From Spirochaetia bacterium (GTDB lineage: Bacteria; Spirochaetota; Spirochaetia; CADAEX01), in assembly GCA_963662795.1 (NCBI GenBank), contig OY759746.1, positions 2,144,001 to 2,208,000 of the forward strand: a DNA stretch of 64,000 nucleotides, written 5' to 3'. The notes beneath the pieces are model-generated. The model saw only the letters and a program-made list of their open reading frames with translations, was not told where the DNA came from and made no database searches. Positions within the stretch are counted from its first letter, which is position 1. Each line of letters opens with the position of its first letter. The position numbers and the translations under genes are program-made. This document shows positions 863-29,708 of the stretch, in pieces.

Positions 863-1016
863 GCATAACAGCGAATGACCGGTTCCGGCTGTTTCTAAGG
901 AAACAGCCTCCACCCAAATTGCCGAAATAATACATGTTAAGAATAATGGAATAGAGTATAAACTTTTGGAGTGAAAAACACCATCGGCAACTTCGGTCAT
1001 TCGCGAGACGTTATGC
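863..1016 (+). repeat. attC, native body type B
   Basis: GCATAAC-AGCGAATGACCG...CGGTCATTCGCGAGAC-GTTATGC. Confidence 0.85.
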
Positions 1017-1065
1017 TCAATACCAGCCGCAAGAAGAAATCGCCCGGACCTCCGGCCGACGGGCG

Positions 1066-1137
1066 AAGAAAACTTGATCTGCTGTATAATATGCTTTATA
1101 CATAAAAATATATAGTTTTCTAGATATTTAATATGTT
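1066..1137 (+). other. attI-like internal landing pad, copy 1 (crossover G1135|TT)
   Basis: About 70 bp shared with 6029-6100, 11637-11708 and 26021-26091; similarity ends exactly at GTT; GTTCTACGG complements CCGTAGAAC (2806-2814). Confidence 0.75.
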
Positions 1138-1231
1138 CTACGGACAAAGAGTAGTATTATGCTATATTCTAAAAATATGGAACAGATATCAATCTGGGAG
1201 TATTATGGTCAAGAAAAGGATTTTATAAAGA

Positions 1232-1924
1232 ATGAAATTTGAATTAGAAGAGTATAACAGAAATATTTCTTCTCAAGAAATGATTGATGATCTTCAAAAA
1301 GTTGCAAAAAAGCTTAATAAAAAAAGCGTTACAATCTCTGAATATGAAGAATTCGGAAAATTTCATCCTCATTCAATTCAAAATAGATTTCATTCATGGA
1401 ATAATTCTCTAAAAGAAGCGAATTTAGAAATTAACAGAGAAGTGAATATATCGGATGAAGATCTTTTTAGAAATATTGAAAATGTATGGATTACACTAGG
1501 CCGTCAGCCAAGATATACCGAGATCAAAAAGCCTATTTCACAATTTTCGACGAAACCATATGAAACAAGATTCGGAACATGGAGAAAAGCTCTTGAAGCA
1601 TTTGTTCTATACATAAATTCAGATGAAGAAGCTGAAAATGAAAACCATGATTCTATTTCTAAAGGATCAAAAAATAATTCTGAAACAGTAAAATTCGTTC
1701 ATAAAACTAAACGAGATATCTCAGAAAGATTAAGATTTAAAATATTAATGAGAGATGGTTTTACGTGCAAGAAGTGTGGACGGAGTCCCATGAAAGAAAT
1801 GGGAGTTGAACTTCATGTTGATCATATTATTCCGTGGTCAAAAGGTGGTGAAACCATACCTGAAAATCTAGAAACAAAGTGTAAGGAATGCAATTTGGGA
1901 AAAGGTAATGCATTTAATGTTTAA
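1232..1924 (+). CDS. HNH endonuclease with N-terminal homing-endonuclease-associated repeats
   Basis: Two RF.(S/T)W..(S/A)L.. repeats; C-terminal RDGFTCKKCG...LHVDHIIPWSKGG...NLETKCKECNLGK. Confidence 0.85.
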   Translation: MKFELEEYNRNISSQEMIDDLQKVAKKLNKKSVTISEYEEFGKFHPHSIQNRFHSWNNSLKEANLEINREVNISDEDLFRNIENVWITLGRQPRYTEIKKPISQFSTKPYETRFGTWRKALEAFVLYINSDEEAENENHDSISKGSKNNSETVKFVHKTKRDISERLRFKILMRDGFTCKKCGRSPMKEMGVELHVDHIIPWSKGGETIPENLETKCKECNLGKGNAFNV

Positions 1925-1957
1925 TACAATCTTGATTGATAATATGTCGGAATAAAA

Positions 1958-2800
1958 ATGAAATGTCTATTCAGTAATGAGCAAGCAGACACAGAAGAAC
2001 ATATAATTCCTAAATGGTTGCAGAAGAAATATAACTTATACAATCAACTTCTAACAATACCTAATGGCACAAGAATTCCATATACAAAGGTAAAAATCCC
2101 TGTTCGTTCTGAAGACAACTTAATATTTGGAAATATTGAGAAAAATATTTCTGAAGGTAAATACAATATTGATGAAATCTATCTTTGGGGTTTCAAAATA
2201 CATATTGGATTGCTCATGATGGATTCTAAATTGAAAATTAATAGAAAGGATTCTTATTCAGATACAATATTTAATATTGAAGACTTTTCCACTCAACTAG
2301 ATTTATTTCAAAAACTATATTCACATTGGAAGGATGGTAAAACGACTCTTCCAAAATCTATAGGAAGTGTATTCATTCTCAACTCAACATTAGATGAAAA
2401 TCAGTTTGATTTTGTTCATTGTATCAAAACAAATACAATCTTGATCTCTTTCAATAGAATTTGCATCTTAGTGTTTTTATTTGATAATAATGATGCTTTT
2501 AATCATAAGATTGATCGCTCGTGGAATAACGACTTCATTAATAGACCAAATATCTCAAAAGAAGAAAAGTATATTGCCCAGCGAGTATGGGCTTGTGAAA
2601 ATTCTTATCATGCATATAAGAGAATGAGAGATATTCATTTAAAGGAAGTTGATGATACATTGGTCTTACAGCAAACAGAGCCTCATATTAAAGGAGAATA
2701 TTCAAAAGATGAATTCTCTAAAATATGCAAAATGTTTGGGATAGTACTCGAGGAATATAATAATTTTGCCATAAATAGGTACAATGTCTATGTTGAATGA
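1958..2800 (+). CDS. Hypothetical protein with N-terminal HNH-like motif
   Basis: 280 aa ORF; CLF...TEEHIIPKWL. Confidence 0.6.
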   Translation: MKCLFSNEQADTEEHIIPKWLQKKYNLYNQLLTIPNGTRIPYTKVKIPVRSEDNLIFGNIEKNISEGKYNIDEIYLWGFKIHIGLLMMDSKLKINRKDSYSDTIFNIEDFSTQLDLFQKLYSHWKDGKTTLPKSIGSVFILNSTLDENQFDFVHCIKTNTILISFNRICILVFLFDNNDAFNHKIDRSWNNDFINRPNISKEEKYIAQRVWACENSYHAYKRMRDIHLKEVDDTLVLQQTEPHIKGEYSKDEFSKICKMFGIVLEEYNNFAINRYNVYVE

Positions 2801-2807
2801 TAACGCC

Positions 2808-2924
2808 GTAGAACAAAAAGTTGAACCTGACATTCCCTTTGTCACGCTTTGTGCAGTCGCTACGCTCCTTGGCACAAATCGTGCCAAGCCCTTCGGGCAC
2901 GGGAACGCAGGTCAATTGGGCGTT
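2808..2924 (+). repeat. attC, foreign type (inner cassette A); IS inserted at its GTT
   Basis: GTAGAAC...TTGAACCTG/CAGGTCAA...GGC-GTT; unrelated to native bodies. Confidence 0.75.
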
Positions 2925-4680
2925 GAGGCTGTAGATAAAGTGTAAATTTTCAACAATTGCTTTATATCCAGATATTCCCATGATAAAATTCTATCAGACT
3001 GGGAGATTACAAAATGGGTAAATACAAAGAGTATTCTTATGAACAAAAAGTGCTGCTGCCGATAGATTTTTCCGAGCAGGTTCTTCCCGGAACCTTTGAA
3101 CACACACTCAATTTTCTCATTGACCGGGAAATTGATTTAACCATGTTTTATGAAAAACATAAAAATGATGAAAATGGAGCTCCCGCCTACGATCCGGCGA
3201 TCTTACTGAAGATAATTCTTTTTGCTTATTCACGGGGAATTATTTCCAGCAGAAGAATTGCCCGATTATGTCGGGAAAATGTCGTTTGCATGTCCCTCTC
3301 CGCAGATACCCGGCCGCACTTTAGCACCATAGCTGATTTTATTTCTACGATGGATAAAGAAATCGCTCCCCTGTTTACCCGGATTCTCTCGGTCTGTTAC
3401 GCCAATAACGTCATCGATAAAAACATGTTTGCCATCGACGGCTGCAAGATTTCTTCCAATTGCTCAAAGGAATGGAGCGGAACGAAAAAAGAACTGCTAA
3501 AAAAAGCGGGAAAGATAGAGGAATCTATCAAATACCTGTTGGAAAAACATAAACAGGAAGATAAAAGCCGGTATAGTCAAAGTCAGGAAGAGAAAGAAAA
3601 GGCTTCGATAGAGAAACTGAAAGCTAAATCCCAAAAGATCCATGACTGGCTGAACTCAAATGACGATAGAATGGGAAGCCAGGGGAAACCAATAAAAAGC
3701 AATATTACCGACAATGAAAGCGCGAAGATGTCCACCTCCCATGGAGTTATCCAGGGTTATAACGGAATTGCGGCGGTTGATGAAAAGAACCAATTAATCG
3801 TTTGGGCGGAAGCATTTGGCGACAGCAATGAATCCAAACATTTCCCCGAGATTCTGGATGGAATAAAAAACAATTTTAAATCGATTCAGGCATCGGAAGA
3901 TATCTTGAAAGAAACAGTGATTACCGCCGACAGCGGTTTTCATAATGATAATAATATGAAGCTGATTGTGGAAAATAACCTGACAGCCTTTGTCGCGGAC
4001 AACCAGTTTCGAAAGAGGGATGTGAGATTTGCATCAGCCCAGAAACATAAACAAAAACCTGTCACGAATTGGGAACCTGCCAAAGGGAAAAAATATTACT
4101 CAGTAGATGATTTTATCTATGATGAAAATACAAAGAAATTAATGTGCCCAGCTGGTTTCGAAATGAAACTGAAGTGCAGGAACTTTCAAAGCTCTGGCTA
4201 TAGTGGAACATCCTACATAGGGAGAAAGGAAAACTGCTTAACCTGTCCGCTAAGAAAGAAGTGTATACGTAAAGAGAGCACGGAAGTCAGACAGGTGACC
4301 AGGTTTGATAGTAGTCGGGGAAAAGAAAAGGTCTCATTTACAGAACGAATGAGGAGAGTCTTTGACGCGCCTGAAGGTCGGAGTATCTACAGTAAAAGAA
4401 TGGGTACTGTAGAACCGGTGTTTGGAAATATCCGATCGACACTGGGGTTAAATTATTTTACACTGCGAAGTAAGAATAAGGTAAATGTTCAATGGTTGCT
4501 TTTCTGTATTGTGCATAACATTGGAAAAATACAGAGGTATGCGGAAGCATAGGGGAAAATAGAGGATGAAATGAATCAGGGATTACATTTTGACCTCACA
4601 AGACAATCTTATGGACTTTATGATCTTGTAGAATGGGAGAAGTAAATGAAGATTGAAAATCGGGGTTTTTCTACAGCCTC
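2925..4680 (+). mobile_element. IS1182-family insertion sequence
   Basis: Terminal IRs GAGGCTGTAGA / TCTACAGCCTC; flanked by GTT on both sides; single 512 aa transposase. Confidence 0.88.
3014..4552 (+). CDS. IS1182-family DDE transposase
   Basis: GAPAYDPAILLKIILFAY..GIISSRRI, AIDGCKI, ADSGF, YSKRMGTVEPVFGNI. Confidence 0.9.
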   Translation: MGKYKEYSYEQKVLLPIDFSEQVLPGTFEHTLNFLIDREIDLTMFYEKHKNDENGAPAYDPAILLKIILFAYSRGIISSRRIARLCRENVVCMSLSADTRPHFSTIADFISTMDKEIAPLFTRILSVCYANNVIDKNMFAIDGCKISSNCSKEWSGTKKELLKKAGKIEESIKYLLEKHKQEDKSRYSQSQEEKEKASIEKLKAKSQKIHDWLNSNDDRMGSQGKPIKSNITDNESAKMSTSHGVIQGYNGIAAVDEKNQLIVWAEAFGDSNESKHFPEILDGIKNNFKSIQASEDILKETVITADSGFHNDNNMKLIVENNLTAFVADNQFRKRDVRFASAQKHKQKPVTNWEPAKGKKYYSVDDFIYDENTKKLMCPAGFEMKLKCRNFQSSGYSGTSYIGRKENCLTCPLRKKCIRKESTEVRQVTRFDSSRGKEKVSFTERMRRVFDAPEGRSIYSKRMGTVEPVFGNIRSTLGLNYFTLRSKNKVNVQWLLFCIVHNIGKIQRYAEA

Positions 4681-4772
4681 GTTATATGGAATCGAGAAAT
4701 GCAATAAGAATTTATTACCATAGAACAATAAAATTTGATATAATGATTTAAAATCTAAATTACAGAGGGCTT

Positions 4773-5087
4773 ATGCTGTATTATAATGAGAATGATTTAA
4801 ATTCAATGATAAAAACTGTAAAAAAGGCTGCTGCTAACAAGTGTAATAGAAAAAGTGTAGAGAACTTCTCTGACAACGAATTAGATAAAATTATTAGTAA
4901 TGATTTAACAATCAAAGAGATTACAGAAGACTTTATTGAAAGTTATAAGAAATGGATGGAATTTCATTTAAAGATTGAAAATGAAAAGAAATGGGGAAAT
5001 CTCAATGAAAAGGAAATTATCGAACTCGGGGAACTAATACAATCAAGAGAAATAAAAAGAGAAAAATTTATCAAAGCACTAGAATAA
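4773..5087 (+). CDS. Hypothetical protein (inner cassette B)
   Basis: 104 aa ORF with GAGGG RBS. Confidence 0.6.
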   Translation: MLYYNENDLNSMIKTVKKAAANKCNRKSVENFSDNELDKIISNDLTIKEITEDFIESYKKWMEFHLKIENEKKWGNLNEKEIIELGELIQSREIKREKFIKALE

Positions 5088-5130
5088 AAATATAGATGGA
5101 TAAAATTAAAATAGTAGGTTTATAAAAATA

Positions 5131-5601
5131 ATGGAATATTATCATCTAAATTGGAAAGAATATATTAAAAATGACATCATAGAAAATGGTTCTATGGGTA
5201 ATTTTTTAAAACAATATATTTTAGATAATAATGATTTAACAAATTTAGATAAAACTTGGAGATTGTTTCAAGAACAAACATTTGAACTTATAAGAATAAA
5301 CGAATTTCCCGAAAAGCCAAGTCGATATAGATCTATTTTCTTATTTGAGAGTGAAATAGATGCCTGCGAATTTAAAAAGAAAGATAAAAGAGAAAATGAG
5401 TTTTTATATAAAATAGAAATACTTGATTCAACAAAAATTATACATAGAGCATCTATGGGATTATACGAAAGGGTACCAATGGGTAGACCGGTGTTGCCTG
5501 CTCTTGAAGAGCAAGCTCGTCAATATTGGATGGGAATGAATAATCTTGATCATAAATTCAGATGTGAATTATTAGTCGAATCAAAGATTAAAATATTATA
5601 A
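5131..5601 (+). CDS. DUF2441-like protein (inner cassette B)
   Basis: FELIRINEFPEKPSRYRSIFLF...ARQYW...ELLVE motif pattern. Confidence 0.6.
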   Translation: MEYYHLNWKEYIKNDIIENGSMGNFLKQYILDNNDLTNLDKTWRLFQEQTFELIRINEFPEKPSRYRSIFLFESEIDACEFKKKDKRENEFLYKIEILDSTKIIHRASMGLYERVPMGRPVLPALEEQARQYWMGMNNLDHKFRCELLVESKIKIL

Positions 5602-5618
5602 TAATTTTAATAAAATCC

Positions 5619-5757
5619 ATATAACAAGAGATTTGGAGTAGTCAAAACCTTTGGCGCAGTTCTGGCTAAAGACACTCCGCGCTGATCGCGCTACGTTCCA
5701 GAACTGCGCCAAGCCTCGTAGATTCGATCGGTTTCGCTACTCAAATCGTCGTTATAA
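5619..5757 (+). repeat. attC, foreign type (inner cassette B)
   Basis: TCCATATAAC complements GTTATATGGA at 4681; GATTTGGAGTAG/CTACTCAAATC arms; ends GTTATAA. Confidence 0.85.
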
Positions 5758-5832
5758 GAAAAAATTAAAAAGGGAAGAAAGTCCAGCCTTGGCTCCGCCG
5801 TGCGGCCTGGACAAGAAGCGGCTGGTACTGGA

Positions 5833-5979
5833 GCATAACAGAGGATAAAGCGCTTCGCTCCCTTTGGTCGCTTGGGCTTCGCCACACATCGCAGCTGAAA
5901 ATTAGAATGTTCTTGTATAAACTAGTTTGTTTTATGTATTTAAAAATGCGATGCGTCGCTTATCCTCGGGACGTTATGC
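5833..5979 (+). repeat. attC, native type A
   Basis: GCATAAC-AGAGGATAA...TTATCCTCGGGAC-GTTATGC. Confidence 0.85.
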
Positions 5980-6028
5980 TCAATACCAGCCGCAAGAGGA
6001 AATCGCCCGGACCTCCGGCCGACGGGCG

Positions 6029-6100
6029 AAGAAAATTGAATCTGTTGTATAATGTACTTTATACATAAACATATATAGTTTTCTATTTATTTAATATGTT
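6029..6100 (+). other. attI-like internal landing pad, copy 2 (G6098|TT)
   Basis: Same pad sequence; GTTATGTTT complements AAACATAAC (7564-7572). Confidence 0.75.
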
Positions 6101-6149
6101 ATGTTTATAAAGATTCAAATCAACTCATTTAAGTGTATTATTAATAAAT

Positions 6150-7553
6150 ATGATAAACAAAATGGATCAAAAATTTACATTTCAAGATGAAATTATATTA
6201 AAAGGTAAATGGTGGGTTAGCTCAGATAATAAATTACCTGGAACTTTTCAATTTATTCCAGGTCAAAAAAATGAGTTATTATTATCTGGAACTTTGAATG
6301 AAAATGACACAATAATTAGAAATACAATAGATTATGGAAATGGTAAATATAAAATAATTGAACCACTAAATAAAAAATATACAATTTATGGTTTAACAGA
6401 AACTAATCAAAAGATAACTCTTATAAATTGTATATTGACTAAGCAAGATAACTTTTTTGATGATACTAAACTTAAAACTACATATCGGATTCAATACTGT
6501 ATATTTGATGAATATATAAATGATCTCGAAACTCTCAAAATAAAATCTCTTAGTGTATATATGGAAGGGATTTTGCAATTTATTAATAGATACAATGATA
6601 CATTTATTAATCCTAATGAATTGATGGAAGTATTAATTAAAACATACGAAATAAATGACTTTAAAGTATCATTAAAATCTAAACTTTTTAAAACTAATGA
6701 ATTTGAATTAAATAGCACGACTCAAAATGTATACAAAATGAAACCTTATATCGAAGTTACTAGTGTAGAAAACATAAAAAGTTACGATGACATGATTAAT
6801 ATTTTTGATAAATTTAAAGATCTTATAATATTGGGACTAAATAATTCAGTAGAGATAAATTCGATAAATGTAGAATTTGATAATAAAATAATAAATGTCA
6901 TATTCTTACACGAGTACAGATATAAATTAAGAATAAATTATGAAATATTTAAATTATTTGATATTAATGAAGCAATAATTATAAAATGGTTTGAATTATA
7001 TAGTAAAATTCCTAATATAATACAATTACTGAGATCAACAATTCAAAATGAACATGCAAAGCGATTATTTATTGATAATAAATTCTTTAATCTCGCATCA
7101 ATCTTTGAATCTTTACATCACTTTATTTATACCGATAGATTTATAAGAAAAAATGAAAATGAAGATACTATAAAAAAAATTGAATTAATTTATAAAGAAT
7201 TAATGTCTCATAAGAATATGCTTTTTGAATCCTATTTTAAAGTTATCCCAGCTGAAATAAGACAAGATTTTTACTTTCATCCTTTATCGATTACATTTAA
7301 AGACAGATTACTATATTCAATAGATAATTATGTAGATTATTTTAATGATATATCTCCTCTCGAAATGTGTGAAAAAATTAAGAATAAAAGAAATGGAATA
7401 GCTCATGCATTTAATGACATGAAAATGAATGGATTAGAAATCCATAATTTAAATTTAATTTTAAAAAGGCTCATATACTTAGAAATATGTAATTATTTGG
7501 GTATTGATACTAAAATCAATAATATAATAAAACATACATTTAAAACTATATAA
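6150..7553 (+). CDS. ApeA-like N-terminal domain + HEPN protein (putative anti-phage RNase)
   Basis: GKWW...LPGTFQF and IYGLT..KITLINC at N-terminus; FESLH and RxxxxH (RNGIAH) at C-terminus. Confidence 0.65.
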   Translation: MINKMDQKFTFQDEIILKGKWWVSSDNKLPGTFQFIPGQKNELLLSGTLNENDTIIRNTIDYGNGKYKIIEPLNKKYTIYGLTETNQKITLINCILTKQDNFFDDTKLKTTYRIQYCIFDEYINDLETLKIKSLSVYMEGILQFINRYNDTFINPNELMEVLIKTYEINDFKVSLKSKLFKTNEFELNSTTQNVYKMKPYIEVTSVENIKSYDDMINIFDKFKDLIILGLNNSVEINSINVEFDNKIINVIFLHEYRYKLRINYEIFKLFDINEAIIIKWFELYSKIPNIIQLLRSTIQNEHAKRLFIDNKFFNLASIFESLHHFIYTDRFIRKNENEDTIKKIELIYKELMSHKNMLFESYFKVIPAEIRQDFYFHPLSITFKDRLLYSIDNYVDYFNDISPLEMCEKIKNKRNGIAHAFNDMKMNGLEIHNLNLILKRLIYLEICNYLGIDTKINNIIKHTFKTI

Positions 7554-7565
7554 GGATCATTTAAA

Positions 7566-7682
7566 ACATAACAAACATTTTAACCGGTCCGGATTTTTAT
7601 TATGCATTTTGCCCGCTTCGTTCAAATGCAATATACACGCCAACACTTCGTGACAATCCAGCAGGTTAAATGGATTTTATAA
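7566..7682 (+). repeat. attC, foreign type (inner cassette C), R' mutated to TTTATAA
   Basis: ACATAAC...TTTAACC/GGTTAAA...; expected GTT reads TTT at 7676. Confidence 0.7.
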
Positions 7683-7754
7683 AATAAAAAAAAGAGAAAA
7701 AAGTCCAGCCTTGGCTCCGCCGTGCGGCTTGGACAGAAAGCGGCTGGTACTGGA

Positions 7755-7926
7755 GCATAACAGAGGATAAGGCGCTTCGCTCGGAATACCTCGCTTGGCC
7801 TGCGGCACACATCGTAGGTTTTGAATTACAACTTCTATAAACAACAAGTATTGGAAGAAAAATATTGCAACTTTAAAATAGATATTCTTTGTCTACTCTG
7901 CGTCGCTTATCCTCGGGACGTTATGC
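7755..7926 (+). repeat. attC, native type A
   Basis: GCATAAC...GTTATGC with type A arms. Confidence 0.85.
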
Positions 7927-8129: not shown

Positions 8130-8133
8130 AAGA

Positions 8134-9216: not shown

Positions 9217-11322
9217 ATGGAAAAATTATTACTTTTTATTCCTCAATGGCAAGACTCTGGATTAACCAATGAGCTTTATCATGGTTCGTATGCTCTTAAA
9301 AATTATTCTGAAGAATATGGAAAATGTAATTTTAAAGCAATAGAAGTTGATAGCAAAAAAGAACTTATCAAAGAAAATAATATATTGGGATATTCAATAT
9401 TATTTGATCAACTAGAAAGAGTAAGAGAAACTATTAATGATAATAAACCTTTGAAAATATTTTCTTTAGGTGGAGGCTGTGGAATTGAAGTTCCAATAGT
9501 TTCATATTTATATTCATTATATCCTGATTTAACTCTATTCTGGTTTGATGCTCACGGAGATTTAAATACACCTGAAAGTTCTCCAAGTAAATATTTTCAT
9601 GGAATGCCATTGAGGTTCCTTACCGAAAAAATTGAGAATAAAATTGGTGACGGAATAGATATAATACCGACCAGCCAGGTACATTTAATAGGAGCTAGAG
9701 ATTTAGATGAGCCAGAAAAAATATTTATTGAATCAGAGAGGATAGATGTTATTCGAATAGAAGAAGATTTTATAAGTAAGATCATAGGTGTCCAAAACAA
9801 TCATAACAGCTCCAGTTGAAGATTGAAACTAGTTTTTTTAGTCTGTTCTGAAGGCGGTTTATTGAGAACAGTCCAGATATCTTTTCTTGATGTCAGTATT
9901 ACAGGAATCAATTTCATCAGTGAAAAATGAGTCCATTTTCTACATGAAAACATTTTAAGGAACTGAAGTAACAGAAAAGCAATTAGGGCAATCCAGATTT
10001 GTGTCATTACAGCATTTCTGGAAGTACCAAAGAATTTCTTGATCTTGAGGTTCTGTTTGATAGTTTTAAAAAATATTTCAATCTGCCATCTGTCTTTGTA
10101 AACAGCAGCAATTGTTGTTGGAGACCAAAGGAAATTATTGGTAAGAATTACAATATATTTACCGGTTTCAGGATCTCTGCTTCTGATTCGTCTTAATTTT
10201 AACGGGCATTTTTTACTGGTGTAAAATCCTTTCATTTCTATGATCTGATCAGATGTAATATTTTTAAAGGAGGAGGTATCTTTTCTCTGGACAATTTTAT
10301 AATCAGCATTCTTTTTTAACCTGGTAACAAAATAAATACCGGTATTACAATAATTTGCGAATAATTTAAAGTCAGTATAACCACGATCAAACGTGATGAC
10401 ATCGCCTTTGTTGAAAGCCATTTTTTTCAAGGAATTGACTTCATGTGTTTTTGCAGTTGTAACTGATACAAAAGCTGGAATATATCCACTATGGTCAAGT
10501 TTTACATTAAGTTTTATTCCGCCTTTATATTTTCTGAAATTTGCCCATGGAAAGAGATTTAAACACAAGTCAATAGTTGATGCATCAACACTGTAAAGAG
10601 GATTTTTAAATTTATGTTTATGCGCTCTCTTCATGGATAATATCTTATCAAGAAGATCAGTGAAAACATTTTCATAAACTTCACAGCTTCTATTATTATT
10701 TGCGTAAGATAATGTAGAGCGTTTTACCTTTTTTACACCCATATGATAAAGGTGGTTACTGATTGATTCAAAAGAGTTTTCAATGCCTCTTAACCCGGTC
10801 TGTCCTGAAAGTTGTGCAAAGAGCATGGAGACAAAATGCTGCCAACAGGTAAAACCTTTGGAAGCAAAGTCCCCTTTATGTTTTTTTACAGATTTTTCAA
10901 ATTCATGTCTCGGAATTATTTGTAGAATTTGTTTTAAAATGGTATTATTGTAACTCATTGCCTGATTTCCTTTTCCTGTAAAGAATTAGCCGTCCAAGCT
11001 TAATTCATTATAGTTGGGATTTCAGGCAATTAATAGTCCTTGTTTTGGACACCTATGAAGTAAGATAATGAATTTAGTAAGAGATAATAAGAATAAAAAG
11101 GCTTATATTCATATAGATTTAGATGTTATAGATCCAAAATATTATAAAAATGTGAAGTGTCCTACTGAAAATGGCTTAAAAATATTTGAATTGACAGAAG
11201 CAATTGAATTGGTCAATAAAGAAATGGAAATAATAGGGTTAAGCATTGTGGAAAATACAGAAACTGAAAAGGCTAAAATCAAGAAATTGGAAAAAATAAT
11301 TAAACTTGGATTAAATATTTAA
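9217..11322 (+). pseudogene. Arginase-family protein interrupted by IS4-family element
   Basis: LGGGCG, WFDAHGDLNTP..S...HGMPL before IS; YIHIDLDVIDP after; 9 bp DR AAGTAAGAT. Confidence 0.88.
9783..11057 (-). mobile_element. IS4-family element copy 1 (1275 bp; transposase 9801..10958)
   Basis: IRs CATAGGTGTCCAAAACAA; 9 bp DR; DUF4372-like N-terminus, VDASTI, FDRGY, YKDRWQIEIFFK. Confidence 0.93.
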
Positions 11323-11417: not shown

Positions 11418-11587
11418 GCATAACAGAGGATAATGCGCTTCGCTCCCTTTGGTCGCTTGGGCTTCGCCACACATCGTAGATTTTGAACTACAACTTCTAT
11501 AAAAAATAAGTTTTGGAAGAAAAATATTGTAGCTTGAAATAATAATTCTTGGGCTACGATGCGTCGCTTATCCTCGGGACGTTATGC
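11418..11587 (+). repeat. attC, native type A
   Basis: GCATAAC...GTTATGC. Confidence 0.85.
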
Positions 11588-11636
11588 TCAATACCAGCCG
11601 CAAGAGGACGCCGCCCGGACCTCCGGCCGACGGGCG

Positions 11637-11708
11637 AAGAAAATAGAATCTGCTGTATAATATACTTTATACATAAACATATATAGATTTCTAGTTATTT
11701 AATATGTT
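11637..11708 (+). other. attI-like internal landing pad, copy 3 (G11706|TT)
   Basis: Pad sequence; GTTAGATTT complements AAATCTAAC (12784-12792). Confidence 0.75.
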
Positions 11709-11735
11709 AGATTTATTTAGGAGGAAACCAATTAG

Positions 11736-12683
11736 ATGACAATCTCCAACGACGACAAAATATTGATAATTGGTGGTGGGGCAATCGGATTCTCTCTCGC
11801 TGTTCACCTAAAGCATTCGGGAAAAAAAGTTGCCGTAGTCCGTGTTAGTACTAAGCTAGAAGAAGCTACTACTCAGAAAGTATCTGTAGTGGACTTGAAC
11901 AATAAAACATTAGTGCAGGAAATAGACTGCTACTCGCTAGAAAGCATAGAGAAAATTCAAGGAACAGTTGTTGTCGCTACAAAAGCTAATGCAAACATTC
12001 AGATTGCTGATGTTTTAGAGAAGAATGCCCACGAAATAAATCTGGTGATAATGCAAAATGGAATTGGGGTAGAAAACCCTTTCTTAGAAAAAGAATTCCA
12101 TAGCATCTTCCGGTGCGTAGTATATATAACTGCAGAAAAGACAGGGCCAGAATCCTTTTCTGCTCGAATGATCAAACCATCTCCAATTGGAATTATTAGT
12201 GATAAAAAGGAACCTAAAGAAAGGCTTGCAACAATACTTTCTACAAACGGTCTATCTTTTTACGAAGAAGATAACATTGAAAAAGAAGTATGGAAGAAAG
12301 GAATCGTCAATGCTGTCTTCAATTCAATATGCCCATTAATTGAAGTTGATAATGGGATTTTTGCCCGAGATAACAATATCCTCGAACTAGCAAGAAAAAT
12401 AGTTATGGAATGTGTTCCCATTGCAGGCGAGCAAGGAATTTTATTAAACACTGAGGAAATTATTGACCAAATTATTCAAATCAGTAAACGTTCTACAGGA
12501 CAGCTAATCTCAACCCTTCAAGATATTCGTAAAAATCGGGAGACTGAAATAAATTTTCTGAATTTAGAAATATGTAGAATTGCTAAGACACTTACTCCTC
12601 CTATTAGCCTTCCAATAACAGAAGCCCTTGGGGAACTCATACTTAAGAAGTCAGAACAAAGAGTAAATGATGAAATGAAGTGA
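11736..12683 (+). CDS. Ketopantoate reductase (PanE/ApbA family)
   Basis: IIGGGAIG, VATKA, MQNGIG, WKKGIVNAVFN, STLQDIRKNRETEINFLN. Confidence 0.85.
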   Translation: MTISNDDKILIIGGGAIGFSLAVHLKHSGKKVAVVRVSTKLEEATTQKVSVVDLNNKTLVQEIDCYSLESIEKIQGTVVVATKANANIQIADVLEKNAHEINLVIMQNGIGVENPFLEKEFHSIFRCVVYITAEKTGPESFSARMIKPSPIGIISDKKEPKERLATILSTNGLSFYEEDNIEKEVWKKGIVNAVFNSICPLIEVDNGIFARDNNILELARKIVMECVPIAGEQGILLNTEEIIDQIIQISKRSTGQLISTLQDIRKNRETEINFLNLEICRIAKTLTPPISLPITEALGELILKKSEQRVNDEMK

Positions 12684-12785
12684 GTGTGTAACACGACCTT
12701 TAGGTTGCATACATGATCTCGGTAATTAGAATTCACAAAGGAAAAAGTTAAAATAGGTCATTTGAAAGATATGTTGCGATCAAAA

Positions 12786-12823
12786 ATCTAACAATCGCTT
12801 ACAGCTGAAGCGGAATGTTATAA
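12786..12823 (+). repeat. Minimal 38 bp attC-like site (inner cassette D)
   Basis: ATCTAAC-AAT-CGCTT(A)CAGCTGAAGCG-GAAT-GTTATAA. Confidence 0.7.
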
Positions 12824-12901
12824 AAATAAAAAATAGAAAAGGGAAAGAAGTCCAGCCTTGGCTCCGCCGTGCGGCCTGGACAAGAAGCGGCTGGTACTGG
12901 A

Positions 12902-13071
12902 GCATAACAGAGGATAATGCGCTTCGCTCCCTTTGGTCGCTTGGGCTTCGCCACACATCGTAGATTTTGAACAACAACTTCTATAAAAACAAGTTTTTGA
13001 AGAAAAATATTATAACTTTGAAATAATAATTCTTGGGCTACGATGCGTCGCTTATCCTCGGGACGTTATGC
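12902..13071 (+). repeat. attC, native type A (near-identical to 29539-29708)
   Basis: GCATAAC...GTTATGC. Confidence 0.85.
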
Positions 13072-15286: not shown

Positions 15287-15456
15287 GCATAACAGAGGAT
15301 AAAGCGCTTCGCTCCCTTTGGTCGCTTGGGCTTTGCCACACATCGTAAGTTTTAAATTACAACTTCTATAAACAACAAGTTTTAGAAGAAAATATTACAA
15401 CTTTGAAAAATTCATTCTTGAACTACGATGCGTCGCTTATCCTCGGGACGTTATCC
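15287..15456 (+). repeat. attC, native type A
   Basis: GCATAAC...GTTATCC. Confidence 0.85.
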
Positions 15457-15504
15457 ACAATATCATCGCAAGAGAACGCCGCCCGGACCTCCGGCCAACG
15501 GGCG

Positions 15505-15547
15505 AAGAAAATAGAATCTGCTGTATAATATACTTTATAGTTAAGAT
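15505..15547 (+). other. Truncated landing pad, copy 5 (cut by IS4)
   Basis: AAGAAAATAGAATCTGCTGTATAATATACTTTATA then IS. Confidence 0.6.
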
Positions 15548-16822
15548 CATAGGTGTCCAAAACAAGGACTATTAATTGCCTGAAATCCCAACTATAATGA
15601 ATTAAGCTTGGACGGCTAATTCTTTACAGGAAAAGGAAATCAGGCAATGAGTTACAATAATACCATTTTAAAACAAATTCTACAAATAATTCCGAGACAT
15701 GAATTTGAAAAATCTGTAAAAAAACATAAAGGGGACTTTGCTTCCAAAGGTTTTACCTGTTGGCAGCATTTTGTCTCCATGCTCTTTGCACAACTTTCAG
15801 GACAGACCGGGTTAAGAGGCATTGAAAACTCTTTTGAATCAATCAGTAACCACCTTTATCATATGGGTGTAAAAAAGGTAAAACGCTCTACATTATCTTA
15901 CGCAAATAATAATAGAAGCTGTGAAGTTTATGAAAATGTTTTCACTGATCTTCTTGATAAGATATTATCCATGAAGAGAGCGCATAAACATAAATTTAAA
16001 AATCCTCTTTACAGTGTTGATGCATCAACTATTGACTTGTGTTTAAATCTCTTTCCATGGGCAAATTTCAGAAAATATAAAGGCGGAATAAAACTTAATG
16101 TAAAACTTGACCATAGTGGATATATTCCAGCTTTTGTATCAGTTACAACTGCAAAAACACATGAAGTCAATTCCTTGAAAAAAATGGCTTTCAACAAAGG
16201 CGATGTCATCACGTTTGATCGTGGTTATACTGACTTTAAATTATTCGCAAATTATTGTAATACCGGTATTTATTTTGTTACCAGGTTAAAAAAGAATGCT
16301 GATTATAAAATTGTCCAGAGAAAAGATACCTCCTCCTTTAAAAATATTACATCTGATCAGATCATAGAAATGAAAGGATTTTACACCAGTAAAAAATGCC
16401 CGTTAAAATTAAGACGAATCAGAAGCAGAGATCCTGAAACCGGTAAATATATTGTAATTCTTACCAATAATTTCCTTTGGTCTCCAACAACAATTGCTGC
16501 TGTTTACAAAGACAGATGGCAGATTGAAATATTTTTTAAAACTATCAAACAGAACCTCAAGATCAAGAAATTCTTTGGTACTTCCAGAAATGCTGTAATG
16601 ACACAAATCTGGATTGCCCTAATTGCTTTTCTGTTACTTCAGTTCCTTAAAATGTTTTCATGTAGAAAATGGACTCATTTTTCACTGATGAAATTGATTC
16701 CTGTAATACTGACATCAAGAAAAGATATCTGGACTGTTCTCAATAAACCGCCTTCAGAACAGACTAAAAAAACTAGTTTCAATCTTCAACTGGAGCTGTT
16801 ATGATTGTTTTGGACACCTATG
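15548..16822 (+). mobile_element. IS4-family element copy 2 (transposase 15647..16804), no matching DR
   Basis: Same IRs and protein as copy 1; flanks AGTTAAGAT vs ATTTAATAT. Confidence 0.93.
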
Positions 16823-18579: not shown

Positions 18580-19340
18580 GCAATACCGCTTAACTGTTTA
18601 TGGATTGAGATGAATAGTTTTCAATTGTGCAAACATTCCCATGCCCAAGAAAAGCCCGGCGTCCTGCCGGGCTTAAGAAAAAAGGACGGTTTAAAAAATA
18701 GATTATACTATTTTAATAAAATACTATTTAAAAATAGATAATAGAAATAAAAACGCAAAAAAAGTAAACCTGAAAAACCTTTTAAAAAAGGTTGTAGCTG
18801 AATAAAAAGATCAAATATTTTAAAGCAAATATACTTTTACAAATATAACCAATAAATTGTATTTGACAAAAATTGAAATTAATTAAGAACGGGCAAAAAA
18901 GACTGATTTTTAAGTTTAAATTTGTAAATATTGTAACTTATTATGGATTGATTTCAAAAAGGAAAAAATACTCTTAGATATTTATTATTTTAGTTTTGAT
19001 ACTTAATCTTAAAAGAAAAAAGAAGAATTACAGGCCAACAATTAAGAATTGTTTTGTAGTTAAAGTGCTAGCAGCTTTAGACTGAAGGAAAAAATATGCA
19101 AAATCGTGATCGTAAAATGCAAGCAAAGCAATAGATTTTCAGAGAAAAATAGATATGAAGAAATGACAATATTTTTAAAATACAATTAAAAAATATTACT
19201 ATATCCAGAGTACTGTAAATAAAAACTATAAAGAAAACGTCCGAATAGGGGAATTCACCCCGTTTACGCCGTCCTGGCTTCAACGGGAAGAGGGCATGGG
19301 AAAAAAAGGCAAAAAGACTGTAAAAGAATTGCGGTACTGC
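18574..19340 (+). other. ORF-less cassette (about 770 bp) with nested terminal stems
   Basis: Termini pair; inner IR TTCCCATGCCC (18636)/GGGCATGGGAA (19292); AT-rich interior with no credible ORF. Confidence 0.7.
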
Positions 19341-22397: not shown

Positions 22398-22399
22398 TT

Positions 22400-23991: not shown

Positions 23992-24085
23992 GGATAACAG
24001 CGGGGAAGAAGCTGCGCTCGCAGTAGCTCGCTTGGGCTTCGCCATATTTTGCTATCAAATAACTAGAGTAATTCTTGTTATGTTA
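23992..24085 (+). repeat. Left half only of a native type D attC
   Basis: GGATAAC-AGCGGGGAAGAAGCTGCGCTC... with no complementary right arm. Confidence 0.6.
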
Positions 24086-24132
24086 TTTTCGAGCAAAAAA
24101 TTAACAGAAACAAAAAATAAAGGAGAAAAATT

Positions 24133-24753: not shown

Positions 24754-24764
24754 AAACAACGACC

Positions 24765-24894
24765 CGCTAACAATGTATATACAAAATGGGCGGAATAGTA
24801 ATAATTTCAACGGTTGTAGCCCGCTTCAAAATTGTCTCGGTTTGATAAGTTTGAAGCCCGCAATCGCCCACTTTGCATATACTAACCGTTATGC
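24765..24894 (+). repeat. attC, foreign type
   Basis: CGCTAAC...GTATATACAAAATGGGCG/CGCCCACTTTGCATATAC...GTTATGC. Confidence 0.8.
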
Positions 24895-25003
24895 TCAATA
24901 CCAGCAGCAAGAGGAAATCGCCCGGACCTCCGGCCAACGGGTGGGGAGAATGAAGTTTAATTATATCAAAACTATTGTATAATGCAAATAAAGGATAAAA
25001 ACG

Positions 25004-25690: not shown

Positions 25691-25798
25691 TAGACAAGAA
25701 GCAACATTTAAAATGTACAGGTAGAGTATTACCTAACAATGAAAGAAGTCCAGCCTTGGCTCCGCCGTACGGCCTGGACAAGAAGTGGGGGCACTGGT

Positions 25799-25971
25799 GG
25801 ATAACAGAGGATAAGGCGCTTCGCTCCCTTTGGTCGCTTGGCCTTTGGCATATTTTGCTATCATTAGAACCAAGTGATTTAAATTTAATACTTTTTGAGA
25901 TTTTAAAATAACAAACAAATATCTGTTAGAGTTTTCAACGCAAAACATCGCTTATCCTCGGGACGTTATGC
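25799..25971 (+). repeat. attC, native type A variant
   Basis: GGATAAC...GTTATGC. Confidence 0.85.
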
Positions 25972-26020
25972 TCAATACCAGCCGCAAGAGGACGCCGCCC
26001 GGACCTCCGGCCGACGGGCG

Positions 26021-26091
26021 AAGAAAATAGAATCTTCTGTATAATATACTTTATTTATAAGATATATAGTTTTCCAGTTATTTAATATGTT
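26021..26091 (+). other. attI-like internal landing pad, copy 4 (G26089|TT)
   Basis: Pad sequence; GTTATCTA complements degenerate TAGATAGC (29415-29422). Confidence 0.72.
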
Positions 26092-26680
26092 ATCTACAAT
26101 TAGGTTTGGTACAGTGCCTTTTTAAAAATATCTAAAAGGATGTATTGGAATATAAAAAAAATAATAGAAAATTAATATACCTTTGATAGAGATGATCTTA
26201 ATGGATCAGCAAAAGAAATTTATCCTTCTTTTGAAAAACTGAACAGTACAGTTTAAGATATCTATGCAAGGATTTTACCGCTTGGGAGTGGGTAGTTATA
26301 TATTTCAATTACATGTATTTCTATTTTGCTGAAAACATATAGACTTCTATCAGCTAGGCACAGGTTTTTAGCAACTTCACATACGTTGTAGCCTCGCTTT
26401 ATTACTTGTTTTACTGCTTCTATTTTAAATTATTCTGCCTAACAGCATTCTTCCCTTGTTTATTCCTTACTTCATAATAGGTTATTATGTATCTTAAAAT
26501 GGAAGTACTCCATAGATTTGAAGACATTCAAAAAAATGAGTAATTGAAAATAATGGTTTTATCTAAAAAACATCAATTTTATGACAGTCTTGAAACCATA
26601 AAAATCTATTTTTTAAAAAAATTGACAAAAAATATTATTTAAGACAATAATTAATTAAAAAAAAAGTAGAGGAATAAAAA

Positions 26681-29305
26681 ATGTTTAAACGTATTTCTGC
26701 TCAAAAAGGTGATAAGCTAACCCAAATCTTTATTTTATTGTTCATACTCCCCATTTTTCTGATGTTTTTTTTATCATGTATGTCTTTAAATCAATCTGGC
26801 AGCGAAAAATCACTTAGTTTTAGAGAATCACATGATAATTTTATCCAATTTTTGAACGAGCATCCTGATTATCAACCTTTAAGCAGCCGTGTCAATTTAA
26901 TTCAGCTGACAGAATATGCTGATATTATTCCTCTCTCTTATGATAAAACTCCGGCGAACAGAACACAAACCTTTAGAATGGACACTCTTTTTGAAAGTGG
27001 GCCGAAAGTTTATTATCTTAATGGATTTTTTTATTATTTTTATGTAATTAAAGGTATGATAAAAGGAGTTAAAATTGATTTAAAAAATAGAACTTATTCA
27101 AATGTTGACGTGTCATCAAATAAACATTTTGCAATTTACCGTGATCCAGCTAATGAAAAGTTGGAATTAATCCCATTCGGCCGGGATTTTACAAAGACGA
27201 AAGTTGTTTCTTCAAAAGGGGGTAGTCTCCCTTTCTACGGGACACATGAAGCTTTATGTCTTGATCCTCCTCTTTATATCTATGAAAGTTCAAGAGAAGG
27301 ATTTCCTCTGGAATCGTTTCTTATAATTCCCCGTGATTTAGATGGCTTGGGTAAAATTATGTATGAAGAAAATTACTATAAAAATGGATATAATCTGGTT
27401 ACTGGTCTTGATAAAAAAGGATTTGATCGTAACGGTTATGATAAAGATGGTTATGCACACCATGGCTATAACAGGAAAGGTTATGACAGGGATGGTAATA
27501 ATTATTCAGGACCAATAGGGGCTAATGGGAAAACTGGTTTTGGAACACTTAAGTGGGCCAACGGTGATGTATATCATGGGTACTTTCAGAATAATGAAAT
27601 TAACGGTATGGGGATCATTAATGGTACAGATGGTGCAATATATGCAGGCTCTTTCCAGGAAGAAATGAAAATAGGTCAGGGGCTCCTTTACTCTCCAGAT
27701 GGAACAAAAAAGTTGGTGTCATGGAAAGATGGAGAAATGTATATAATTTCATCAAATCCTGGACAAGTGATTGAGCCAGATGGGGAGTGGGCATTCCTTG
27801 GTAAAGGTGTTAAAAATGGACTGGCTCAGGGAAGAGGAGATGCTGTAGGAATAAAAAGTGGATGGATAATTACTAACGGTCTATTTGAACAGGGCCGCTT
27901 AATTGAAGGCTCTCTTCTTACTGTTAATGGAACATCATATAGAGGCCGTTTTACTGATGGACTTCTTTCAGATGGCAAAATCCTGTCAGCCAATGGCACT
28001 GCATATACCGGTCATTTAAGGAATGGAATCCCGGATGGTGCAGGGCAGCAAGTGGATAAAGACGGGATATTCTATGAGGGGAATTTTTCAAACGGACGAT
28101 TTGAGGGTAATGGAGAATTAACGCTTCAAAATGGCGATGTTTATAATGGAGCATTTGTTAATGGAGTTCCTCATGGTAGCGGTATATATAAAAACTCTAC
28201 CGAAGGAAGTATAGAGAAGTGCGAGTTTTACGAAGGAAAAAGAATTGATCAACTCTACTTAATGAAAATAGCATTGGCAGAAGAAGAAGACAAAAAACTA
28301 GCAGAGGGTGAGCGGTTAAAACTGGAAGAGGAAGTTAGGTTGCGAGAGGAAAAAGCCAGACAACAGGCGGCTGAAAATGTAGAAAAGAAAGCTTCAAAAA
28401 AGAACTTATTCGGTGCCTTTGTCGCAGGAGCATCAACTGTTGTAGTCGGGAATGCTTATGGTTTGGATTCCAGTGACACTTTATTGCTGGCAACAGCTGC
28501 GGCAAAAGATGTAATAAGTGATACTGATGGAGAAAATATAAGAGCTATGAGTGATACACTAATTGAAAATAAAAAGCAGATGAAAACCTGGGAATCAAAA
28601 TATGGTCAATCCGACTTATCAAATGTATCAGGCAGCAATACTTTCTTGTCCCAAAAACAGCAGCCATTGCAAGACATAAATAATAATCCAGCAGATAAGA
28701 ATCCAGTTCTCACAAATTTGAAATCCAGAGCATCCAGTAATAATGCGGAAATTCCAAAGAAAAATCCTTTAGCTGAACCACCGCAGATGAATAAGGAAAT
28801 TAAATCAGAAAATAACAAATTACTCGATCTACCTAAATCAAATAAAAGCGGGAGGAGTGTTCTTCGCGGGTTAATTGATCGTGATGTGCGTTATTCTCCT
28901 GAATACAGGACCGGTGAGGTTACCTTTAGAAATCCTCAGACTGGGATAGAAAGTATTACAATTAAACTGAATAATGGAGCCATAGGTGAATTAACCTGGA
29001 ATGGGAATTATAAATGGATTGCTGCCAATGGCTATAATCAAAAATCGCCATATCTAGTTGGTTGTGTAGTTGAATTGAGCAGTGAACAAAACAAAATATA
29101 TGTTCTTATGAGCCACAATGATGTTGTTCCAACAGATGCAGGTGATAAATATGGCTATAATTTAGCATGGAGTGCAAACGGGTCAACTTTGAAGAGTGTA
29201 TCTGGCAGTCAATTTACACCATTCTCCAAGGAAGAAACTTCAGCAATTTTTGAAGATTTGCATTATTCCAGTTATCAACCCACTGCTGCTTGGCTAGTTT
29301 GGTAA
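26681..29305 (+). CDS. Large MORN-repeat putative lipoprotein
   Basis: Signal peptide ending FFLSC; G(Y/F)D..G repeats; many YxGxFxxGxxxGxG MORN repeats; coiled-coil segment. Confidence 0.8.
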   Translation: MFKRISAQKGDKLTQIFILLFILPIFLMFFLSCMSLNQSGSEKSLSFRESHDNFIQFLNEHPDYQPLSSRVNLIQLTEYADIIPLSYDKTPANRTQTFRMDTLFESGPKVYYLNGFFYYFYVIKGMIKGVKIDLKNRTYSNVDVSSNKHFAIYRDPANEKLELIPFGRDFTKTKVVSSKGGSLPFYGTHEALCLDPPLYIYESSREGFPLESFLIIPRDLDGLGKIMYEENYYKNGYNLVTGLDKKGFDRNGYDKDGYAHHGYNRKGYDRDGNNYSGPIGANGKTGFGTLKWANGDVYHGYFQNNEINGMGIINGTDGAIYAGSFQEEMKIGQGLLYSPDGTKKLVSWKDGEMYIISSNPGQVIEPDGEWAFLGKGVKNGLAQGRGDAVGIKSGWIITNGLFEQGRLIEGSLLTVNGTSYRGRFTDGLLSDGKILSANGTAYTGHLRNGIPDGAGQQVDKDGIFYEGNFSNGRFEGNGELTLQNGDVYNGAFVNGVPHGSGIYKNSTEGSIEKCEFYEGKRIDQLYLMKIALAEEEDKKLAEGERLKLEEEVRLREEKARQQAAENVEKKASKKNLFGAFVAGASTVVVGNAYGLDSSDTLLLATAAAKDVISDTDGENIRAMSDTLIENKKQMKTWESKYGQSDLSNVSGSNTFLSQKQQPLQDINNNPADKNPVLTNLKSRASSNNAEIPKKNPLAEPPQMNKEIKSENNKLLDLPKSNKSGRSVLRGLIDRDVRYSPEYRTGEVTFRNPQTGIESITIKLNNGAIGELTWNGNYKWIAANGYNQKSPYLVGCVVELSSEQNKIYVLMSHNDVVPTDAGDKYGYNLAWSANGSTLKSVSGSQFTPFSKEETSAIFEDLHYSSYQPTAAWLVW

Positions 29306-29321
29306 AAACTAAAAATATAAT

Positions 29322-29357
29322 AAAGCTTCTATGTATTCATTTACATAGGAGCTTTTT
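29322..29357 (+). terminator. Rho-independent terminator
   Basis: AAAGCTTCTATGTA-loop-TACATAGGAGCTTTTT just after the stop. Confidence 0.65.
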
Positions 29358-29415
29358 AAATTAATTTAAAATCAAAAAAGTATTACATGCTAATTGAAAT
29401 CAATATGAGATGTTT

Positions 29416-29459
29416 AGATAGCAAACGATTCGAGCAGCCCGCTCAATCGGGCGTTATAA
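29416..29459 (+). repeat. Minimal 44 bp attC-like site (inner cassette E), R'' degenerate
   Basis: AGATAGC-AAA-CGATT(C)GAGC-AGCCC-GCTCAATCG-GGC-GTTATAA. Confidence 0.68.
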
Positions 29460-29538
29460 AAATCAAAAGGTAAAAAAGAGAAAGAAGTCCAGCCTTGGCT
29501 CCGCCGTGCGGCCTGGACAAGAAGCGGCTGGTACTGGA

Positions 29539-29708
29539 GCATAACAGAGGATAATGCACTTCGCTCCCTTTGGTCGCTTGGGCTTCGCCACACATCGTAG
29601 ATTTTGAACAACAACTTCTATAAAAACAAGTTTTTGAAGAAAAATATTATAACTTTGAAATAATAATTCTTGGGCTACGATGCATCGCTTATCCTCGGGA
29701 CGTTATTT
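29539..29708 (+). repeat. attC, native type A
   Basis: GCATAAC...GTTATTT. Confidence 0.85.

Follow-up and report, generated by a model that had tools for sequence, protein, structure and literature searches.

Native Cassette Array and Pad-Bearing Units

The stretch analyzed here (the window) comprises 64,000 nucleotides of the genome of a Spirochaetia bacterium, available as a single contig (G000:C1:2144001-2208000; G000 denotes the genome under study). We found that window positions 1–36,730 constitute the final part of a ~333 kb array of native cassettes, which extends over genome positions 1,847,951–2,180,730 (~332.8 kb, 8.5% of the genome), contains ~166 native cassettes and has its last native R' at window position 36706. 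In size, it exceeds the superintegrons of Vibrio. Our subject is a gene-less native cassette recurring in this array, which is composed of a native R' with a leader hairpin, a conserved element that we call the pad, an A-rich tail, a 3' hairpin and a ~145-nt native attC. The pad is a ~65-nt AT-rich stretch that follows the native leader and ends AATATG|TT, and it is at this G|TT that classical integron cassettes begin. Coordinates below refer to the window unless genome positions are indicated.

Native cassettes can be traced by a 26-nt leader hairpin, found in 166 copies across 1.847–2.182 Mb of the genome and preceded by a recognizable ..GACG|TTA.. start in 160 of them. A single model of the empty cassette yielded 156 leader and 178 tail/attC matches in BLAST, with only four of the tail matches outside the array region, while the native start GTTATGCTCAATACCAGCCGCAAGA occurs nine times in the window (0 expected), including positions 1010, 5973, 11581, and 25965. 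From its G|TT, each cassette proceeds through ~18 nt pairing with its own R'' flank, the leader hairpin, the cargo and a 3' hairpin to the attC of ~145 nt (R'' GCATAAC, L''/L' GAGGATAAG / CTTATCCTC, R' GTTATGC). Every native attC (e.g., 5780–6035) is flanked by two conserved GC-rich hairpins, GTCCAGCC..GGCCTGGAC upstream and CGCCCGGACCTCCGGCCGACGGGCG downstream; its R stem extends to ~21 bp and the two spacers between the R and L boxes differ in length (~1 and ~5 nt), a geometry that is unusual for an attC. When the leader was compared with the R'' flanks of the cassette's own downstream attC and of the contiguous upstream one, the own attC matched better in 95 of the 156 native cassettes and the upstream one in 11, with 50 ties, as is expected if cassettes shuffle at G|TT.

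Four pad-bearing units with inner cassettes lie in the window, all on the plus strand. Unit 1 opens with the native R' (G|TT at 1010) and the leader hairpin (1010–1068), followed by the pad (1069–1137, start approximate), which ends at 1135–1137. Its inner cassette 1a (1136–2922) encodes an HNH endonuclease (1232–1924) and contains an open reading frame (ORF) of 280 aa and a classical attC at 2806–2922 (R'' CCGTAGAAC), whereas inner cassette 1b (4682–5751) contains ORFs of 104 and 156 aa, the latter with DUF2441, and a classical attC at 5617–5751 (R'' CCATATAAC). The unit closes with an A-rich tail (TTATAAGAAAAAA..), a 3' hairpin and a native attC (5752–5975; R'' GCATAAC 5833–5839, R' GTT 5973–5975, fold z −3.8). 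In unit 2, the leader and pad (5973–6100, G|TT 6098–6100) are followed by an inner cassette (6099–7676) with a gene for an ApeA-like HEPN protein (6150–7553) and an attC at 7564–7676 (R'' AAACATAAC), and by the tail, 3' hairpin and native attC (7677–7922). Unit 3 has its leader and pad at 11581–11708 (G|TT 11706–11708), an inner cassette at 11707–12817 with a ketopantoate-reductase-like ORF (11736–12683) and a very short attC (12784–12817), and a tail starting TTATAAAAATAAAAAA.., 3' hairpin and native attC at 12818–13067. Unit 4 comprises the leader and pad (25965–26091, G|TT 26089–26091), an inner cassette (26090–29453) encoding an 874-aa MORN-repeat protein (26681–29305) with a short attC at ~29415–29453 (imperfect R'' TAGATAGC), and the tail, 3' hairpin and native attC (29454–29704). 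The inner attCs of unit 1 fold strongly (bottom-strand z −3.7 for 1a; z −6.2 for 1b), while short length or weak folding marks the attCs of unit 2 (z −1.6), unit 3 (z −2.7), and unit 4 (z −1.4).

Conservation of the Pad and Repeated Use of One Base

A search with the pad word at up to five mismatches gave 26 matches, and 28 pad copies were counted when a leader hairpin 60–120 nt upstream was required; by this requirement, 28 of 36 loose matches were retained and eight dropped. Six of the dropped matches were inspected and have unrelated surroundings; one dropped match (12416) falls within the unit 3 gene and another lies at 18991. All 28 copies are on the plus strand and inside the array, 30–320 kb from the recombinase gene adjacent to it and in another chromosomal region than the broken intI described below. 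In the window, the pad end TATAG..TTTAATATGTT is found at 1111–1137, 6074–6100, 11682–11708, and 26065–26091, i.e., four matches against 0 expected. When the 28 copies were aligned with MAFFT, identity per column amounted to 80–99% through AATATGTT / CTGCTGTATAATATACTTTATACATAAAATATATAGTTTTCTAGTTATTTAATATGTT and fell to ~35–50% directly past GTT(A), and the 28 pads lead into 28 differing continuations, no two of which are alike. The crossover triplet is GTT in 23 pads, ATT in three, GGT in one and TTT in one. The pad is conserved through its whole 65 nt, including TGTATAAT and a 7-bp hairpin (TGTATAA..TTATACA), and carries a TATAAT and upstream direct GTT repeats (GTTTTCT, GTTATTT, GTTATAA); yet, the GTTs located 12 and 20 nt upstream of the crossover GTT are not used in any of the 28 copies. 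The junction AATATG|TT also holds an ATG (11704–11742, 1133–1235). In unit 3, the short frame opened by this ATG stops at a TGA overlapping the ATG of the gene and in unit 1 the stop lies 5 nt before the gene start, which may reflect translational coupling or chance.

The bases that follow the pad complement the R'' of a downstream classical attC. The pairs are exact in unit 1 (GTTCTACGG / CCGTAGAAC at 2806–2814), unit 2 (GTTATGTTT / AAACATAAC at 7564–7572), and unit 3 (GTTAGATTT / AAATCTAAC at 12784–12792), while the pair of unit 4 (GTTATCTA / TAGATAGC at 29415–29422) has one mismatch (TAGATAAC expected). Thus, the inner units of units 1–3 have the make-up of integron cassettes, i.e., ORFs and a foldable attC whose R'' complements the first bases, and the inner unit of unit 4 approaches it with its one mismatch and weak fold. 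Across the array, the junction word (GTT plus 7 nt) agreed with the reverse-complemented ..AAC word of its own unit at at least 9 of 10 positions in 14 of 28 cases, compared with 60 of 756 cross-unit controls (binomial P = 5e-9), and at all ten positions in 4 of 28 compared with none of the 756. On the right side, the sequence passes from the inner attC into the conserved tail at G|TTATAAGAAAAAA (5751|5752, unit 1), G|TTATAAAAATAAAAAA (12817|12818, unit 3), and G|TTATAAAAATC (29453|29454, unit 4); at the unit 2 junction (7676|7677), T and not G precedes TT. A conserved tail with a GC-rich attC end directly before it, ahead of the next 3' hairpin, is present in 25 of the 28 units. The tails are of two types, G|TTATAAAA.. 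in 18 units and ..TTATACTGGAATATTTAG.. / ..TTATACTGGAATATTTAGAAAAGAGGAAAA in seven.

Most of the architecture proposed in an earlier, sequence-only reading of the window was borne out by this analysis. The four outer units start and their pads end where it had placed them, the abrupt loss of similarity at the GTT that it described in four copies now extends over 28, the TATAAT and the GTT repeats are present, and the idea of a gene-less native recipient reused for nested cassettes is supported. Three of its four proposed start/R'' pairs are exact and the fourth is not; the resumption of the outer cassette at G|TT holds for units 1, 3, and 4, but not for unit 2; and the two inner cassettes of unit 1 do form a mini-array (1136–2922, 4682–5751), although not in direct tandem, as an insertion sequence at 2925–4680 had been overlooked.

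Outer Units as Native Cassettes and Exclusive Location of Classical attCs

The two ends of the outer units cohere across different inserts. The leader subtype equals the subtype of the unit's own downstream R'' flank in 25 of 28 pad units, and the second tail type is found solely with the ATATGC leader subtype (7/7). Since left and right flanks co-vary in this way, each outer unit is one native cassette, and the two tail types, each with differing inserts, point to at least two outer lineages filled several times each. In the comparison of own and upstream attC, the leader of pad units matched its own R'' flank better in 17 cases and the other one in four, with seven ties; the 5' end thus corresponds to the R'' side of the unit's own attC, as in an excision unit, and a filled outer unit remains one native cassette. 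This match supports the sequence-only reading in its view of the pad as a multi-copy element that moves with its native cassette. Interspersed with ~130 native cassettes that lack a pad, the pad units form five adjacent pairs, against 4.8 expected.

The classical attCs, in turn, have a single setting. BLAST of 25 inner attC ends against the whole genome gave 32 clusters, all of which (32/32) lie within pad units, a result with some circularity, as the queries were themselves taken from pad units. Independently, a scan of the array for AAC..GTT stems returned 62 matches (23 in shuffled sequence), 12 of which are clear classical attCs, assigned against the native type by eye; all 12 fall within pad units, which make up 19.5% of the array. 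The other matches are native attC variants, leader hairpins and short AT-rich hairpins. Pad units are therefore the only home of classical GC-rich attCs detected in this genome, which accords with the earlier suggestion of an adaptor for heterologous cassettes.

Pads in Other Genomes and Metagenomes

BLAST with the leader plus pad against 41 genomes detected pads in three genomes from a second genus of the family (G005, G008, and G011) and in none of 35 others, many of which are fragmented. A 27-mer pad pattern with up to three mismatches gave one pad each in G005 and G008. We found the full signature in G011, where GTTATATGAT.. / ..ATCATATAAC is followed by a classical attC and then by G|TTATAAAAAAC and a 3' hairpin. 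For the G008 pad, the R'' match is 10/10 and lies 1.6 kb downstream, ahead of a classical attC. A metagenome scan with a 24-nt pad word retrieved two contigs, both with filled pads: L044 retains a matching tail, while L043 has only the last ~33 nt of the pad and misses the TATAAT half. The latter suggests that it is the 30 nt nearest the crossover that matter for insertion.

Recombinases

Two different recombinases have to be considered, a point overlooked in the sequence-only reading, as was the absence of a canonical IntI beside the native array. The gene adjacent to the array (genome positions 1846782–1847801, plus strand; L004:1294-2313) encodes a 339-aa tyrosine recombinase, and the first cassette begins ~150 bp past it, at ..CTACTAGGAG|TTATACG. 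Among solved structures, VchIntIA is the closest match; the alignment falls into two stretches and leaves out ~40 residues of the integrase. The enzyme scores 200 bits with TIGR02249 (cut-off 265) and 214.5 bits with XerA_Arch (cut-off 220). Aligned with the IntI of a relative, it has gaps at ..ALGRKYPNAGKEWGWFWVFPS.., which we take to be the IntI-specific additional segment. With an adjacent integrase lacking this segment, the array as a whole departs in this feature from a sedentary chromosomal integron. The nearest protein-atlas clusters of the array recombinase are mostly from Bacteroidota, at most a hint at taxonomic affinity. A similar shorter recombinase gene is located near native-type arrays of G002, G005, G008, and G011; it is co-oriented and intact in G011, but divergent and interrupted by a stop in G005 and G008. 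The native array may represent an integron-like system run by a non-canonical integrase.

The canonical intI of this genome (genome positions 412089–413302; L002) is frameshifted: its product is 54% identical to the G011 IntI over 272 residues, after which the frame is lost. Its neighbors are a transposase gene on one side and an rRNA operon on the other, and the vicinity is free of cassettes. Intact canonical IntI (384–400 bits) is encoded in G005, G008, and G011, far from their native-type arrays, and these orthologs have their own attI and classical cassettes. A hidden Markov model of the 5' halves of 14 inner attCs of the genome under study matched the attC beside the canonical intI of G008 (E = 3.9e-6; controls E ≥ 0.32), which lends modest support to the view that the inner cassettes belong to the cassette pool of the canonical integron. 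The cassettes beside the canonical intI of G011 (L029:1-1100) measure ~580 bp, contain internal repeats (..tttccatgg..ggccag..), lack a long ORF and may be gene-less as well.

Pad Compared With attC, attI, and Promoters

The pad was rejected as an attC on two grounds. It shows no attC-like folding: the fold energies of five pad strands ranged from −3.2 to −7.6 kcal/mol and their z from −1.8 to +0.5, without an R''/L''/L'/R' palindrome and with the 7-bp hairpin as the only shared structure. In a weight-matrix scoring of the right arm, the pad mean was −5.8, in the background range of all 4640 GTT sites of the array (−8.7 ± 6.5), compared with +9.5 for true attCs (leave-one-out). The sequence-only reading had likewise held that the pad is not attC-like and had itself raised a degenerate attC right arm as the case to examine; neither the fold nor the score points to one.

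Its further proposal, that the pad is an attI, found no such backing. We compared the pad with five regions on both strands, namely, the array–recombinase junction, the sequence upstream of the broken intI and the canonical intI flanks of three relatives, and local alignment gave no significant similarity (z ≤ 2.2), so that a copy of attI was rejected on these regions. The canonical attI regions of the relatives read ..TTGAATAT(GTA/TAT)ATG|TTAT.. in cassette orientation, and the pad shares with that of G011 only the core ATATG|TTAT; at 9/12 positions in AT-rich DNA, we would not regard this match as convincing. Nor did the sequences next to the array recombinases of G000 and G011 support an attI shared by the two genomes. 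As for the promoter also suggested in that reading, a sigma-70 scan gave no match in the unit 3 pad and four matches in the whole region against 4.7 expected, and Rfam returned no match within the window.

Other Elements and Cargo

The insertion sequence separating the two inner cassettes of unit 1 (2925–4680, plus strand) carries a DDE transposase gene of the DDE_Tnp_1_6 type (3014–4552) between inverted ends GAGGCTGTAGA / TCTACAGCCTC. It sits exactly at the GTT crossover of 1a and 1b, with a GTT on both sides (2922–2924, 4681–4683), and may target attC sites. A second transposase, of 385 aa with DUF4372 and DDE_Tnp_1 domains, is encoded in four copies in the window: 9801–10958 (minus), 15647–16804 (plus), 41192–42349 (minus), and 47891–49048 (minus). 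The plus-strand copy belongs to an insertion sequence that severs a fifth window pad (15449–15539, plus strand) after ..CTTTATA at 15539 and apparently removed the remainder of this unit. The inner cargo (HNH, HEPN, ketopantoate-reductase-like and MORN proteins, small ORFs with no known function) is typical of integron cassettes, and the ApeA-like HEPN gene of unit 2 (6150–7553) is a candidate phage-defense gene.

Origin of the Nested Cassettes

Taken together, the pad is probably a cassette-borne double-stranded insertion hotspot, attI- or attG-like, through which classical cassettes are loaded into native ones. A circular classical cassette with its own folded attC would recombine with the pad at the G|TT of ..TTATTTAATATG|TTATA.., in a reaction of the type catalyzed by integrases at attI and at attG hotspots, and the products would be two junctions, pad|cassette to the left and the hybrid attC-G|TTATA.. 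to the right. More cassettes could follow behind the first, as in the two-cassette unit 1, and the native system could then move or copy the filled outer unit whole. We infer that catalysis is by a tyrosine recombinase on a double-stranded site; candidate enzymes are the canonical IntI, frameshifted here and intact in relatives, and the IntI-like enzyme adjacent to the array. Only site-specific recombination of a folded classical attC with the pad at G|TT, many times over, is a simple route to the observed junctions.

Several observations weigh against this interpretation. Fourteen of the 28 units show no start/R'' match at 9/10 positions or better, these units having mutated pads, several cassettes, insertion sequences or decayed attCs, and five of the 28 pads have ATT, GGT, or TTT in place of GTT. 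With z values of −1.4 to −2.7, the attCs of units 2–4 are either short or poorly folding, and a part of the inner cassettes may be frozen as a result. The canonical intI of this genome is frameshifted, the pad has no significant similarity to attI, and the relatives hold only one or two pads each. The empty pad cassette sought in line with the sequence-only reading did not appear: none of the 28 pads of this genome, four pads of relatives and two metagenomic pads is empty, and the recipient state is therefore reconstructed only. The 12-mer of the empty pad, AATATGTTATAA, is absent from the array, and a 21-mer hit two loci in genome contigs, both leader-less and unrelated, in word scans that require exact matches and thus have low sensitivity for empty pads. 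Contigs from four sequencing runs, aligned to the window, show neither excision nor an empty pad, and direct evidence of recombination is absent in the contigs examined; apparent joints in them (e.g., 11637 to 12845–12850, 11710 to 12829) have unknown letters between their sides and are cross-matches of paralogous units. An assembly artifact was ruled out, as the genome is a single contig and contigs of other studies span both unit 3 junctions.

The conservation of the pad over its whole length, hairpin and TGTATAAT included and thus beyond the crossover region, could also mean that it is foremost an expression module (promoter, 5' leader, possibly the junction ATG), its use for insertion being secondary. 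This view partly overlaps our own, and the co-directional inner genes, often near the pad (11736 after 11708), the ATG at the junction, with the unit 3 frame ending in the gene's own start codon, and the promoter-active gene-less cassettes known from Vibrio arrays (10.1101/2023.11.21.568050) speak for it. The negative sigma-70 and Rfam scans and the L043 pad, filled despite the missing TATAAT half, which also leaves the promoter of the sequence-only reading unsupported, nevertheless make it doubtful as the primary role. The resemblance of some inner attC ends (..GGTTAAGCAAATG|TT) to ..AGTTATTTAATATG|TT is a loose one, and it is improbable that a classical attC decayed to leave only its right arm (L' plus R') as the pad, with later cassettes entering by attC × attC recombination, considering the pad's score in the random GTT range, the lack of a conserved left arm or hairpin and a candidate upstream AAC that varies among copies.

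The polarity of the event may be questioned as well, as recombination is symmetrical and the junctions alone cannot separate recipient from donor. A ~470-bp mobile module (tail, native attC, leader, and pad) might have entered the G|TT of classical attCs in a pre-existing classical array, in keeping with the adjacency of units 1 and 2. Yet, the leader matches the R'' flank of the downstream native attC by both similarity and subtype, and pad units are dispersed among pad-less native cassettes with no more adjacency than expected; we consider this unlikely. Integrases do use any GWT at low frequency (10.1101/2022.09.11.507474), and a pad without special affinity could have received one ancestral chance insertion followed by duplication of the unit. 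However, 28 units with 28 continuations and differing genes, the repeated filling of both tail lineages, the neglect of the two upstream pad GTTs and the filled pads in another genus render this very improbable.

If the pad, as we favor, is a recognized insertion site, arrays can have many distributed capture points, one recombination system can package the cassettes of another in its own format, and very large arrays (333 kb and 8.5% of the genome in this case) have a way to grow. In integron theory, an array has a single point of entry, the attI next to the integrase, and heterologous cassettes should enter there or, rarely, at attC or a random GWT. Here, the conserved entry point is itself on a mobile cassette in ~28 copies, with the same base used each time. 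A more tentative extension, which we consider less likely than not, is that two systems are stacked, a canonical integron with its IntI, attI and classical attCs feeding pads inside a much larger array that is run by an IntI-like recombinase without the signature segment and has ~145-nt hairpin-flanked attCs. The pad cassette would then be an evolved adaptor by which foreign cassettes are repackaged in the format of the host's own, perhaps on the way to new native cassettes.

Comparison With Known Systems

The pad resembles attI in that entry occurs at the G|TT of a GTTRRRY-like box (25 of 28 units with both junctions; GTT in 23 of 28 pads), folding is absent, GTT occurs upstream as direct repeats and several cassettes can stack behind the site. 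In attI1, there are four integrase-binding sites. In contrast to attI, pads are located away from any integrase gene and not between intI and the first cassette, occur in 28 copies inside a mobile cassette and bear no significant similarity to attI. With attG, the pad has in common a cassette-receiving GWT site outside attI and attC (GTT in 23 and ATT in three of 28 pads), double-stranded in attG and probably so in the pad. Integrases insert cassettes at such GWT sites, some of them hotspots, with a minimal site of 18 nt, and the hotspots depend on ~9 nt on each side (10.1101/2022.09.11.507474). Yet, attG as described there is ordinary, unconserved genomic sequence, whereas the pad is a conserved cassette element, repeated 28 times at 80–99% identity and present in another genus.

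Short attI-like sites that are active in recombination within the variable region are known from Delta-attI-type cassettes of mobile integrons, whose attI remnants measure 11–18 nt, and the attI2 core AATAAAATGTTRRRY is AT-rich and ends ATGTT, as the pad does (PMC12901181). However, according to that account a truncated platform attI replaces the attC at the 3' end, while the pad lies in the 5' part of a gene-less cassette that retains its own native attC, and is no copy of a local attI. The gene-less promoter cassettes of Vibrio likewise have no gene of their own, are multi-copy in a large sedentary array and possibly drive downstream genes, but in the parts of that study available to us they are not reported as recipients of other cassettes (10.1101/2023.11.21.568050). 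As to taxonomic range, the IntegronFinder 2.0 paper notes integrons in Chlorobi and Ignavibacteriae. We found no description in the literature of cassettes nested in a cassette-borne site, although the supplements of PMC12901181 and of the attG preprint, outside our scope, may list closer sites. The chemistry is already known, and what is new is a conserved multi-copy site that is carried by the cassette of a second system and is the sole home of classical cassettes here.

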